DNA from: a virus
Taxonomy: Duplodnaviria; Heunggongvirae; Uroviricota; Caudoviricetes
IMG/VR virus record: IMGVR_UViG_3300022692_000022
Length of the DNA: 7,332 nt
Reading direction: 5' to 3' (one strand)
Made by a program: the position numbers and the translations under genes. Shown one piece after another: positions 3,577-5,514 of this stretch. Below the pieces are notes generated by a model. That model was not told the DNA's origin and made no database searches. It saw only the letters and a program-made list of their open reading frames with translations. Within the stretch, counting starts at the first letter, position 1. The number at the start of each line of letters is the position of its first letter.

Positions 3577-5514
3577 GTGACTCTTAAACGGGCCTGCTCC
3601 CTGCTGACGGTGAAATCCTTCAGTGAGGATGAGCGGGTGATCACCGGGATTGCGTCAACGCCTTCTCCGGATCGGGATGGTGACATCCTGGAGCCGGAGG
3701 GCGCGGAGTTTGGCAGTGCGATTCCGTTTCTCTGGCAGCATGACCATTCCCGCCCGGTGGGGCAGTGTACGGTGCGCCGGGTCAGCGAAGGGCTGGAAAT
3801 CACGGCAACACTGGCGAAGCCCGTGCCGGATATGCCATCGCAACTGGCTGCCAGGCTGGATGAGGCCTGGGCGGCCATTAAGACCGGGCTGGTCAGGGGG
3901 CTGTCCGTGGGCTTCCGTCCTCATGAATACACCTTTCTGGACGGAGGTGGACTGCATTTTCTGCGCTGGGAGCTGATGGAGGTGTCTGCCGTCACCGTGC
4001 CCGCGAATGCGGAATGCACCATCCGGACCATTAAATCTTACGACCGCCAGTTTTCTGCCGCGTCCGGCAACCGGAAACCGGTGGTGAAAATCGCATCTTC
4101 TGCCGGCGCTGCGGCACAGTCAACAACCGTTTTTCATAAGGAAAAGACCATAATGAATATTGGCGAACAGATTAAAAGTTTTGAAAACAAGCGTGCAGCA
4201 CTGGCAGCCTCCCTTGAGGAGGTCATGACCAAAGCCGCAGAGGAAGGGCGCACGCTGGATGTGGAGGAGGAAGAGCATTACGACAACACCGCAGCGGAAA
4301 TACGTCAGGTGGATGCGCACCTGAAGCGCCTGCGTGAACTGGAAGCCGGTAAGGCCGCCACGGCGCAGCCGGTGAAACAGGCCGGTAACGGGAATGTGGC
4401 CGCGGTGGCTTCTGCGCCGGTGATCCGTGTGGAGCAGAAACTGGATAAGGGGATTGGTTTCGCACGTTTTGCCAAATCGCTGGCTGCGGCTAAAGGTGTC
4501 CGCTCTGAAGCCCTGGAAGTGGCCCGTCGTCAGTATCCGGATGACAGTCGTCTGCATCATGTCCTGAAATCGGCAGTGGGCGCGGGGACCACCACGGATC
4601 CGCAGTGGGCAGGCAGCCTGTCTGAATATCAGGAATACGCACAGGACTTTATTGATTACCTGCGTCCTCAGACCATTATCGGGCGATTTGGTCAGGGCGG
4701 GATCCCTGCACTTCGTCAGGTGCCGTTCAATATCCGTGTGCACGCCCAGGTGTCGGGCGGTGCTGCCGGCTGGGTGGGTGAGGGTAAGGCAAAACCCCTG
4801 ACGAAGTTTGATTTTGAATCCATCACCTTCAGTCATGCTAAGGTGTCGGCCATTGCGGTACTGACGGAAGAATTGATCCGTTTTTCCAGTCCGGCTGCTG
4901 ATGCACTGGTCCGTAATGCGCTGGCGGAAGCGGTGGTGGCGCGTCTGGATACAGACTTTGTGGACCCGAAAAAAGCGGCGGTGGCAGATGTCTCCCCGGC
5001 GTCCATCACCCATGATGTGAAGGGCACGGCATCAAGCGGTAACCCGGATGCGGATGCAGAGGCGGCGTTTGGACAGTTTGTGGCAGCAAACCTGCAGCCC
5101 ACCGGTGCGGTCTGGCTGATGTCCAGCACCAATGCTCTGGCGCTGTCCATGCGTAAAAATGCGCTGGGTCAGAAAGAATACCCGGACATGACCCTGCTGG
5201 GTGGCTCCTTCCAGGGGCTGCCGGTGATTGTCTCCCAGTACGTGGGTGATCAGCTGGTGCTGGTGAATGCCCCGGATATTTATCTGGCGGATGACGGCGG
5301 CGTGGCAGTGGATATGTCCCGCGAGGCATCACTGGAAATGCAGTCTGAGCCGACCGGCGACAGTACCACGCCGTCGCCGGTGGAGCTGGTTTCCATGTTC
5401 CAGACAGGCAGCGTGGCCATCCGTGCGGAGCGCTGGATCAACTGGCGTCGTCGCCGTACCGCGGCGGTGGCGGTGATCACCGGAGTGAACTATGGCAGTG
5501 CGTCCGGCGGCTGA
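3577..5514 (+). CDS. Prohead serine protease (HK97/S78-like) fused in frame to an HK97-fold major capsid protein
   Basis: GTG 3577 follows a perfect AGGAGG (3566-3571) with a 5-nt spacer; stop TGA 5512-5514. Residues 1 to about 175 carry prohead-protease motifs (FLWQHDHSRPVG with the catalytic His, GLSVGF with the Ser, EVSAVTVPAN). From the internal Met (codon 193, ATG 4153) onward the sequence looks like an HK97-family capsid protein: a coiled-coil delta-like N-terminus (MNIGEQIKSFENKRAALAASLEEV...) and then the capsid core. Confidence 0.9.
   Translation: MTLKRACSLLTVKSFSEDERVITGIASTPSPDRDGDILEPEGAEFGSAIPFLWQHDHSRPVGQCTVRRVSEGLEITATLAKPVPDMPSQLAARLDEAWAAIKTGLVRGLSVGFRPHEYTFLDGGGLHFLRWELMEVSAVTVPANAECTIRTIKSYDRQFSAASGNRKPVVKIASSAGAAAQSTTVFHKEKTIMNIGEQIKSFENKRAALAASLEEVMTKAAEEGRTLDVEEEEHYDNTAAEIRQVDAHLKRLRELEAGKAATAQPVKQAGNGNVAAVASAPVIRVEQKLDKGIGFARFAKSLAAAKGVRSEALEVARRQYPDDSRLHHVLKSAVGAGTTTDPQWAGSLSEYQEYAQDFIDYLRPQTIIGRFGQGGIPALRQVPFNIRVHAQVSGGAAGWVGEGKAKPLTKFDFESITFSHAKVSAIAVLTEELIRFSSPAADALVRNALAEAVVARLDTDFVDPKKAAVADVSPASITHDVKGTASSGNPDADAEAAFGQFVAANLQPTGAVWLMSSTNALALSMRKNALGQKEYPDMTLLGGSFQGLPVIVSQYVGDQLVLVNAPDIYLADDGGVAVDMSREASLEMQSEPTGDSTTPSPVELVSMFQTGSVAIRAERWINWRRRRTAAVAVITGVNYGSASGG

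Follow-up and report, generated by a model that had tools for sequence, protein, structure and literature searches.

A fused prohead protease and capsid gene of BP-4795-type phages with a conserved candidate internal start at the domain boundary

Described systems that join a protease to capsid assembly

In phage HK97, the prohead protease (gp4) and the major capsid protein (gp5) are the products of two separate genes, and in the HK97 maturation pathway the protease removes the delta domains of the capsid protein. Duda and colleagues are said to have reported in 2013 that this protease is targeted non-covalently, via its C-terminal region. The locus considered here occupies positions 3577-5514 of a stretch of Caudoviricetes DNA of 7,332 nucleotides (IMG/VR record IMGVR_UViG_3300022692_000022), which as a whole we call the window; it is a draft scaffold in which positions 2586-2685 are a gap of 100 N. 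The locus shares with HK97 gp4/gp5 the S78 protease family, the capsid fold, and an N-terminal helical delta domain, and both are without a separate scaffolding gene; removal of the delta domains by the protease is expected here too. However, the protease tail of the window protein runs directly into the delta domain, and the gene order is unlike that of HK97, with the portal gene of the window lying downstream of the capsid gene.

A different logic is found in lambda C/Nu3, Mu I/Z, and herpesvirus UL26/UL26.5, where a long protease product is accompanied by an abundant shorter product, from the 3' part of the same frame, that carries the assembly domain, and where the protease is co-assembled at a low, set ratio. 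UL26.5 is made from its own transcript, without an internal ribosome binding site. All of these systems nest a free scaffolding protein, whereas the nested product of the window would comprise the delta domain plus the capsid protein, so that the tether, unlike theirs, would be to the shell subunit. The nested lambda genes are credited to Shaw and Murialdo (1980) in a passage of PMC8508860; lambda C is an S49 peptidase (PMC10695390), and the window protease belongs to S78. The likeness to these systems is one of analogy only, without homology. Within that limit, the suggestion of the initial annotation that the locus follows a lambda C/Nu3-like logic with another domain pairing holds, in that the frame opened by ATG 4153 is the 3' part of a longer frame and ends at the shared stop codon (5512-5514). 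As judged by comparison, a region of independent internal initiation is indicated by a start codon, a Shine-Dalgarno (SD) sequence, and an open context that are conserved in 42/42 non-redundant genes.

Covalent fusions of protease and capsid have also been recorded. ORF003 of Pseudomonas phage PAJU2, annotated as a "prohead protease fused capsid protein," is 48% identical to the window protein and has the same architecture, and the gene order of PAJU2 (terL, fusion, small ORFs, portal) is also that of the window. The tripartite capsid gene of the Salmonella phage Gifsy-2, a lambdoid prophage, combines a protease, a scaffold-like region, and an HK97-fold capsid in one ORF (Effantin et al.). Its record annotates the gene as a Clp protease, whereas the window protein matches only S78: A ClpP or S49 match was sought in Pfam at E <= 0.01 and none was found, S78 being the sole protease family matched. 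Effantin and colleagues reportedly describe a central domain of ~200 residues in Gifsy-2 where the window protein has a delta coiled coil, and the phage is said to use a lambda gpD-like decoration protein. The window gene, having no ClpP/S49-type N-terminal protease domain, falls outside the Gifsy-2 type. In Gifsy-2 (one sequence), the best in-frame SD and ATG of the ORF (GAGGAG, M221, in the least structured context) is also placed at the end of the protease domain. The same domain combination as in the window defines NF045541, a prohead protease/major capsid protein fusion described as frequent among siphoviruses with small genomes, and actinophages have an analogous fusion annotation category. 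Against the window protein, NF045541 scores 53.1 bits where the cutoff is 525, with the match limited to residues 48-287, and phrog_4523 matches weakly; by sequence, NF045541 is a different fusion family from the window gene.

The fused gene, its distribution, and its domains

The initial annotation had presented the fusion as a departure from HK97. The fusion gene is not new: It belongs to a large, already annotated family that includes BP-4795 ORF56, PAJU2 ORF003, phrog_617, and the actinophage category. Stx phage BP-4795 and E. coli prophages match the window at 99.3-99.7% identity, and BP-4795 ORF56 is the same gene, with identities of 99.3% for DNA and 99.5% for protein. We found the gene in 1252/5426 complete E. 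coli genomes (~23%), including Stx1- and Stx2-converting phages. At a threshold of at least 90% identity, 92 phage records and 1245 complete E. coli genomes contain the 645-codon ORF, and because of this recurrence the reading frame is not a sequencing artefact; a stop codon or frameshift that would split the locus into two genes, a possibility raised in the initial annotation, is contradicted by these independent assemblies. The fused frame also occurs in dozens of other genera. The 90%-identity cluster has 9,916 member sequences, the phrog_617 profile spans residues 1-639 of 645 (E = 2e-261), and the fused architecture is found in 143 of the best 150 cluster representatives at 50% identity. 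In BP-4795, phage 2851, and YYZ-2008, the gene is labelled "major head protein/prohead protease." BP-4795 and the RefSeq E. coli genomes carry the gene as one CDS, and the BP-4795, RefSeq E. coli, and PAJU2 records examined contain no nested capsid-only CDS.

The features of the locus, all on the plus strand, are as follows.

3538..3564, +: hairpin (GGACCGC-TGCG-GCGGTTT) with a T-run behind it, resembling a terminator, between terL and the capsid gene
3566..3571, +: SD AGGAGG for the full-length product, 5 nt 5' of the GTG start
3577..5514, +: full-length ORF, 645 aa, ~69 kDa, with protease, linker, delta domain, and HK97-fold capsid domain
3577..4035, +: Peptidase S78 (HK97 gp4-type) prohead protease domain, residues ~1-153 (PF04586, AF2 model)
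3739-3741, +: candidate catalytic His55 of the protease domain
3904-3906, +: candidate catalytic Ser110 of the protease domain
4027..4152, +: disordered, weakly conserved linker, residues ~151-192 (AF2 pLDDT, homolog alignment)
4123..4182, +: island of high AT content and weak folding with the internal start at its centre
4137..4146, +: internal SD-like element UAAGGAAAAG, with core UAAGGA at 4137-4142
4153..5514, +: nested in-frame ORF, proposed capsid-only product of 453 aa, ~49 kDa, N-terminus MNIGEQIK
4153..4569, +: delta (scaffolding) domain, residues 193 to ~331 (AF2 helices; presumed end point)
4624..5511, +: HK97-fold capsid shell domain, residues ~350-645 (Foldseek, PF05065)

The 645-codon ORF runs from GTG 3577 to the TGA stop at 5512-5514. 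For its SD, AGGAGG, the predicted anti-SD duplex energy is -10.3 kcal/mol, and the local fold around the GTG has an MFE of -18.5 kcal/mol over -35..+35. The hairpin upstream is the sole terminator-like site in 3400-5800, a count not above shuffle expectation, and we treat it as a candidate terminator. That one ORF of this length holds both an S78 protease and an HK97-fold capsid domain, as first annotated, is agreed upon by Pfam, TIGR01554, and the predicted fold, and separate domain searches of the protease and capsid parts bear out both assignments.

In the protease half, PF04586 (Peptidase_S78) matches residues 48-153 with 34.1 bits for the full protein and 37.4 bits for the N-terminal half, above the cutoff of 21, whereas TIGR01543 (proheadase_HK97) reaches 46.6-49.6 bits, below its cutoff of 59. 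By sequence this half is thus a domain-level relative of HK97 gp4 and not its close equivalog. A sequence-profile search of the PDB with the protease half returned capsid proteins only and no protease match; the AF2 model of the domain is confident over residues 20-140. Among the 143 fused representatives (from the best 150 clusters), His55 is kept in 143/143, Ser110 in 142, Glu135 in 141, and Asp32 in 140; a catalytic role is assigned to these residues by analogy and is putative.

The linker that follows has AF2 pLDDT values below 50 over residues 151-190 and is the counterpart of the C-terminal tail of the protease in separate-gene relatives. Its length, measured from Ser154 to the anchor, ranges from 15 to 177 residues among the same 143 representatives from the best 150, and its sequence varies as well; indels are present even between homologs at 73-78% identity.

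The nested ORF comprises the delta domain and the HK97 fold, with TIGR01554 covering residues 12-392 of the capsid-only product. In the AF2 model (mean pLDDT 84), the delta helices span residues 195-223 and 229-262 (pLDDT ~96), then 293-331, and profile positions 196-259 are matched by the delta-like N-terminus of 9gyi_B, a cf-PICI capsid protein of solved structure. The delta domain is predicted to be cut off at maturation. No separate scaffold gene is annotated between terL and portal in the BP-4795 and RefSeq E. coli records. For the shell domain, PF05065 (Phage_capsid) matches residues 386-635 with 52.5 bits (cutoff 24.2) and TIGR01554 (major_cap_HK97) scores 77.3 bits (cutoff 27.5). Foldseek matches of the AF2 model to HK97 gp5 (1ohg, 3e8k, 8cfa, 2fs3) have target-normalised TM-scores of 0.63-0.74 and E ~1e-10 to 1e-11, at a sequence identity of only ~13%.

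A candidate internal start at the domain boundary

The SD-like AAGGAAAAG at 4138-4146 and the ATG at 4153, in frame with GTG 3577 and opening MNIGEQIK, are present exactly as the initial annotation claimed. On the window sequence alone, the motif does no better than chance. With a predicted anti-SD duplex energy of -6.2 kcal/mol it ranks 10 of the 53 in-frame ATG/GTG/TTG codons, 13% of all ORF positions score as well, and it is weaker than the 5' SD of the window itself; across the window and the enterobacterial clade, the internal SD is moderate (-5.3 to -6.2 kcal/mol, percentile 6-13%). It is lifted above chance by its local context and by its conservation in relatives. The island at 4123..4182 has a GC content of 30% against an ORF mean of 60% and an MFE of -5.8 against -18.7 kcal/mol, the lowest GC and the weakest folding of any 60-nt segment of the ORF, and the internal start has an MFE of -6.6 kcal/mol over -35..+35. 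In the AF2 model, M193 falls right where the disordered linker (151-190) gives way to the first delta helix (from 195).

Several other arrangements were considered and rejected. The ATG at 4225 (M217) follows a stronger GAGGAGG, but only 2 nt separate the two, CCUCCC pairs with this SD in a local fold of -27 kcal/mol, and the Met is kept in only 70/143 fused representatives (from the best 150). A long-range stem that would present the internal ribosome binding site in a loop is not significant (120-nt fold, z = -1.5). Frameshifting at the A-runs (CAAAAAAGG) of some enterobacterial junctions was dropped because the run is off the X XXY YYZ register and, by inspection, absent from the window. 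An internal sigma-70-like promoter was sought in 3400-5800 and none was found, and on this ground a separate capsid mRNA of the UL26.5 kind was rejected.

The comparison across relatives is based on junction DNA from 99 fused loci, in genomes and viral contigs, down to ~34% identity, which yield 71 distinct junctions. In 71/71, an SD core of 4 nt or more precedes an in-frame ATG or GTG by 5-12 nt. In a non-redundant set of 42 fused genes at 80% identity, 38 have ATG and 4 have GTG as the boundary start codon. The junction SD energy averages -8.5 kcal/mol, versus -2.3 at other codon positions of the same 42 genes; its median percentile is 1.3%, and 62% of the genes fall inside the top 5%. The combined p-value for the junction SD is ~1e-50, a figure that overstates independence because the loci are phylogenetically related. 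Further, the junction is among the least structured segments of the gene family-wide (median percentile 1.5%), and in the window it is the extreme of the ORF.

By sequence comparison, this conservation is at the nucleotide level and not at the peptide level, because the SD core shifts phase, the encoded peptide varies, GGA is preferred, and Val appears only as GTG. All three codon phases are represented among the cores (44, 14, and 13 junctions), and the residues encoded there are KG, KE, EG, QE, RR, RS, KD, EV, or KV; glycine codons at the core are GGA in 53% of cases versus 8% elsewhere; and the boundary Val codon is GTG in 4/4 cases with DNA at hand. Among the 143 fused representatives at 50% identity (from the best 150), the boundary residue is Met in 129, Val alone in 13, and Leu in 1, and the frequency of Met in the remaining linker is 0.3%. 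Among 18 homologs at 73-78% identity, M193 is invariant, and the 20 residues before it vary, with indels. Taken together, the proposal in the initial annotation that ATG 4153 serves as an internal initiation site for a capsid-only protein gains strong support from comparison, with all 71 distinct junctions in agreement. The role it had given to the SD survives in part: Conservation and context speak for it, but the motif itself is modest and carries no weight alone.

The fusion itself also appears from these alignments to be under selection, the frame being kept open through linkers of such different lengths, with His55, Ser110, and Glu135 in 141-143/143 representatives of the best-150 set.

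Two probable products from one frame, and alternative readings

We consider it likely, from the comparative sequence evidence, that one frame yields two products, the protease-capsid fusion together with a capsid-only protein that arises by internal initiation at 4153. The 645-codon gene would then be two nested in-frame genes on the phage late transcript. Starting at GTG 3577 (SD AGGAGG), ribosomes would make the ~69 kDa protease-linker-delta-capsid fusion, and starting independently at ATG 4153 (SD UAAGGA, in the AT-rich unstructured island) they would make a 453-residue, ~49 kDa delta-capsid protein, the presumed bulk building block. Because the two products share the delta and HK97-fold domains, they would be expected to co-assemble into the procapsid, and because delta domains face inward, each built-in fusion subunit would bring one covalently tethered S78 protease into the shell interior. 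How many proteases a capsid receives would be set by the relative rates of the two initiations. Once the shell is assembled, the protease (His55/Ser110) would cut off itself, the linker, and all delta domains, with delta cleavage predicted near residues 330-345, so that the mature capsid protein would retain roughly 300-315 residues. Separately, ribosomes coming from 3577 cross the internal site and could disturb initiation there.

We also favour, with clearly less assurance, a broader reading in which the capsid itself, and no free scaffold, carries the protease, its copy number is set by two competing initiation sites, evolution toggles between covalent and non-covalent delivery through the gain or loss of one stop codon next to an unaltered capsid start, and all of this applies family-wide in proteobacterial phages and prophages. 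As far as we could find, the family-wide nested-gene reading is apparently undescribed in the literature, and the nested CDS is absent from the annotations examined. The searchable full-text literature yielded the fusion annotations and the earlier cases of Gifsy-2 and lambda, but no discussion of an internal start in the S78/HK97 fusion family, though a prior description is possible, and no proteomic or N-terminal data, or virion proteomics of BP-4795-type heads, were found in the searchable literature.

If two products are indeed made, the locus would give a simple and mutable means to study the dosing of an encapsidated enzyme by a virus, because the control would consist of two ribosome start sites in one frame. 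It would also mean that cargo fused covalently to the N-terminus of the delta domain can be loaded into HK97-type capsids, which bears directly on how HK97-fold shells and encapsulin-like containers might be engineered. A very common gene, now called one "major capsid protein" or "prohead protease," would have its annotation corrected, and the fused and split relatives offer a natural evolutionary series for what tethering adds beyond an HK97 targeting tail.

The relatives with separate genes speak for the internal start and also bear on whether the tether matters. They start the capsid gene at the homologous codon with a homologous SD, among them those in Snodgrassella, Acidovorax, Burkholderia phage vB_SBP9, and L090. 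In vB_SBP9 a TAA stop lies inside TAAGGA and is followed by 9 nt and then the ATG, in the same frame, and in L090 the TAA directly precedes the ATG. The capsid-only representatives have MKTIQ, MNYA, or MNIA as their N-terminus, in alignment with residues 193-196. Some split relatives differ just by one in-frame stop beside the capsid start, and split forms are frequent among cultured phages below ~46% identity; since the split state is common in distant relatives, covalent tethering is not indispensable to such capsids. Such easy interconversion of fused and split states, together with a disordered and poorly conserved linker, is what would be expected if both products exist and their covalent linkage is incidental, the result of a near-neutral loss of the stop between adjacent genes. 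Having cut itself free ahead of assembly or in its course, the protease would then enter the procapsid by non-covalent binding of its tail to the delta domain, as in HK97, and stoichiometry would not be set by co-assembly. However, a neutral fusion should often break by stops or frameshifts in so variable a segment, and the frame is open in the 99 fused loci and the 143 representatives of the best-150 set despite a linker of 15-177 residues; further, the clade at 45% identity or above is almost wholly fused. We regard an incidental link as unlikely.

Still less probable is that only the full-length fusion is made, with a protease on every subunit and the internal ATG and SD as a relic of an ancestral capsid start or a by-product of protein-level conservation. 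In a linker so diverged that it is no longer recognizable, a relic should decay, yet start and SD persist in every distinct junction, the start alternates solely between ATG and GTG, and the SD changes phase and residues, with rare GGA glycines and an AT-rich open context. This reading can point to the unexceptional SD of the window, no better than 13% of positions, and to volume, which by a rough estimate does not obviously bar ~415 protease domains from a T=7 shell.

The purine-rich motif might instead act as an SD-like pause that aids domain folding, or as a protease site in the linker, and its position at a domain boundary, where pausing plausibly aids folding, and the frequent Lys-Gly and Lys-Glu at the motif are compatible with such roles. 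It is, however, always 5-12 nt upstream of a conserved ATG/GTG, the peptide it encodes varies, and in split relatives motif and start codon together form the true gene start, so we think another role very improbable. That the fusion is an assembly or sequencing artefact, through a lost base or stop, has in its favour the draft state of the scaffold and its gap, and we give it next to no credence, the identical 645-codon frame recurring in complete E. coli genomes, phage records, and dozens of other genera.

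A protease and a capsid protein in one frame

The ORF at 3577-5514 (plus strand) comprises 645 codons and begins with GTG, with AGGAGG ending 5 nt before this start codon. Pfam assigns residues 48-153 to Peptidase_S78 and 386-635 to Phage_capsid, and residues 204-584 match the HK97 major capsid profile TIGR01554, all above curated cutoffs. An AlphaFold model of the 645-aa protein, built with 71 homologs (mean pLDDT 84), has four parts: a compact N-terminal domain (residues 20-140); a disordered stretch (151-190); two long helices (195-223 and 229-262), with more helices up to residue 331, that form the delta region; and an HK97 fold from about residue 350, which gives target-normalized TM-scores of 0.63-0.74 against HK97 gp5 structures. 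The profile matches and the modeled fold agree with the initial annotation, which had read protease and capsid domains in this one frame. M193, encoded by ATG 4153, falls precisely at the transition from the disordered linker to the first delta helix.

Fusion of an S78 protease to a capsid protein is not unusual. Of 5426 complete E. coli genomes, 1245 carry the same ORF, at as many as seven loci in one genome, and it also occurs in 92 phage records; GenBank names the gene “putative major head protein/prohead protease,” and ORF003 of phage PAJU2 is annotated as “prohead protease fused capsid protein.” PHROG 617, a whole-fusion profile, matches with E = 2e-261, and in a search of 1.84 billion cluster representatives, full-length fusions made up 143 of the best 150 matches (38%-54% identity). 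Because more than a thousand independent assemblies carry the fused frame, an artefact arising from a stop or frameshift is excluded. NCBIfam NF045541 also models prohead protease/capsid fusions, and the window protein falls outside it (53 bits vs. a cutoff of 525). Six longer homologs (P0001, P0123, P0133, P0134, P0194, and P0240; 785-1094 aa) have 120-440 extra N-terminal residues, and P0001 additionally carries a terminase domain (PF03354); these may reflect either gene calls that run together across frameshifts or genuine, larger fusions that take in the terminase gene upstream.

Predicted initiation at the linker/delta boundary

The initial annotation proposed that this frame yields both the full-length fusion and, by internal initiation at 4153, a capsid-only protein beginning MNIGEQIK. 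The SD-like AAGGAAAAG (4138-4146) and the in-frame ATG are present as described. From the window sequence alone the internal SD is not convincing, since its predicted anti-SD duplex energy of -6.2 kcal/mol ranks 10th among the 53 in-frame start codons of the ORF and 13% of positions score equally well. The 60 nt around 4153 have a GC content of 30% (ORF mean 60%) and a folding energy of -5.8 kcal/mol (mean -18.7), both extreme values for the ORF. A near-perfect SD, GAGGAGG, precedes another in-frame ATG at 4225 (M217; window 4204-4227) by 2 nt. We rejected this candidate because the SD is too near the ATG and base-pairs with a CCUCCC farther upstream, forming a stable local hairpin; M217 is not conserved beyond the enterobacterial clade.

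M193 is invariant in 18 homologs (73%-78% identity), in which the preceding 20 residues vary and include indels. We collected junction DNA from 28 genome loci and 80 viral contigs, 99 of which carry an uninterrupted fusion and yield 71 distinct junctions; all 71 have an in-frame ATG or GTG with an SD core 5-12 nt upstream. Reducing redundancy to 80% protein identity leaves 42 fused genes, 38 of which have ATG as the junction start codon and four GTG. Their junction SD averages -8.5 kcal/mol, compared with -2.3 for other codons within those genes (median percentile 1.3%), with near-consensus SDs such as AAGGAGGG or GAGGAGGG in many distant members. Across the family, few windows of the gene are less structured than the junction (median percentile 1.5%). 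The residue just before the conserved xAEQI motif is Met in 129, Val in 13, and Leu in one of the 143 fused representatives, in which Met accounts for only 0.3% of the remaining linker residues; wherever DNA was available (four of four cases), the Val codon is GTG.

The SD core itself contradicts a peptide-level cause of this conservation, such as a cleavage or pause site: it occurs in each of the three codon phases (44, 14, and 13 junctions) and encodes KG, KE, EG, QE, RR, RS, KD, EV, or KV. Where glycine is encoded at the core, GGA is used in 53% of codons vs. 8% elsewhere in the same genes. We therefore read the junction conservation as a nucleotide-level signal. It is likewise hard to reconcile a relic start with a site that persists although the rest of the linker has diverged completely.

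Separate protease and capsid genes are found in Snodgrassella, Acidovorax, Stenotrophomonas phage SOVA965, Burkholderia phage vB_SBP9, and two viral contigs, and every such junction that we inspected has the homologous SD followed by the homologous codon as the start of the capsid gene. In vB_SBP9 and in L090, another compared locus, both genes share one frame with a single TAA between them (inside TAAGGA in the former, directly abutting the ATG in the latter). A single point mutation thus separates the fused form from the split one, and the capsid start site is the same in both. Cluster representatives that comprise the capsid part only start MKTIQ, MNYA, or MNIA, aligned with residues 193-196. 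As far as sequence can go, the comparative case for the internal start is decisive: start codon, SD, and open context are all conserved in relatives, which upholds ATG 4153 as a predicted internal initiation region.

Two predicted products and their use

The long product also appears to be selected, because the frame stays open through a linker of 15-177 residues across fused relatives and the putative catalytic residues His55 and Ser110, plus Glu135 and Asp32, are each kept in 140-143 of the 143 fused representatives. Selection thus appears to act on the internal start as well as on the fusion. The most serious alternative leaves the internal start unaffected and holds that the covalent tether may be dispensable or only mildly advantageous, in keeping with the split forms common among distant relatives.

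The analysis shows the architecture, the modeled fold, the conserved residues, and the conserved internal initiation region; from there on, we infer the synthesis of both proteins, their ratio, and their assembly. The late mRNA would carry two initiation sites, with a protease-delta-capsid fusion as the minor product and a delta-capsid protein as the major one. Through their shared domains these would co-assemble, each fusion subunit bringing one protease into the procapsid interior, and the protease would then cut off itself and all delta domains at presumed cleavage sites, as in the HK97 pathway. The 5' start at 3577 is GTG in the E. coli lineage, compared with a best-supported ATG in 41 of 42 non-redundant relatives; one might speculate that the GTG fits a down-tuning of the amount of fusion protein.

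The same nested-gene logic is known from Mu I/Z and herpesvirus UL26/UL26.5. It also applies to lambda C/Nu3 (Shaw and Murialdo 1980, as cited in PMC8508860). The window differs from all three in that the nested product would be a capsid protein with a built-in scaffold and the protease is of the S78 type. In Gifsy-2, a Clp-type protease is fused to the coat protein (PMC12315714), and the tripartite capsid gene (22471-24561; 696 aa) has its strongest in-frame SD and ATG at M221 (23131; GAGGAG ∼8 nt upstream, -8.8 kcal/mol), in the least structured context among its starts. M221 lies at the end of the protease domain, where a central scaffold-like region adjoins it. This one sequence suggests that Gifsy-2, too, has a nested start like that of lambda Nu3, and hints that nested starts may be general in protease-capsid fusions. 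Full-text searches of the literature found no description of an internal start in this fusion family, and an earlier mention in subscription papers, which lay outside that scope, is possible. A nested capsid start is neat, general, and directly testable, and would not surprise a phage-assembly specialist.

Gene order in the head module

The window is the head-gene region of a lambdoid prophage (99.3%-99.7% identity to the Stx-converting phage BP-4795 [Marienburgvirus] and to STEC chromosomal prophages). Its order is TonB-like lipoprotein, small DNA-binding gene (minus strand), HNH endonuclease, terS, terL, protease/capsid gene, a 73-codon ORF, and portal. Three of these take their names from the RefSeq annotation of a near-identical prophage:

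211-552, TonB-family lipoprotein-like ORF, upstream of terS
684-944, minus strand, YlcI/YnfO-family small protein gene, upstream of terS
926-1291, HNH endonuclease gene, beside the terminase genes

HK97-like cos packaging modules typically have an HNH endonuclease gene next to their terminase genes. A 100-N scaffold gap (2586-2685), standing in for ∼388 nt of BP-4795 sequence, breaks terL, and the terL ORF called at 2140-3513 is an artefact of this gap.

The usual HK97 order is terL, portal, protease, capsid. In contrast, the window has, over 2140-7332, terL followed by the protease/capsid gene, one or two small ORFs, and then portal, an order common to PAJU2 (Pseudomonas) and vB_SBP9 (Burkholderia), which therefore marks the whole head-module lineage. 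The 63 nt separating terL from the capsid gene, within an expected single late operon, contain a terminator-like GC hairpin with a T-run (3538-3564), which may be read through by Q antitermination or may modulate downstream expression. The portal gene 3' of the capsid gene is unusually long (5726-7332, continuing beyond the window end; 8327-11073 in L001, a compared record); in its product, residues 54-382 form a Phage_portal domain, and the C-terminal extension beyond it includes a tandem repeat of 162 nt (54 aa; 4.6 copies at 95% identity in BP-4795). This region is annotated as two portal ORFs in BP-4795 and as a frameshifted pseudogene in RefSeq E. coli; the window frame is still open beyond the end point of the first BP-4795 portal ORF.
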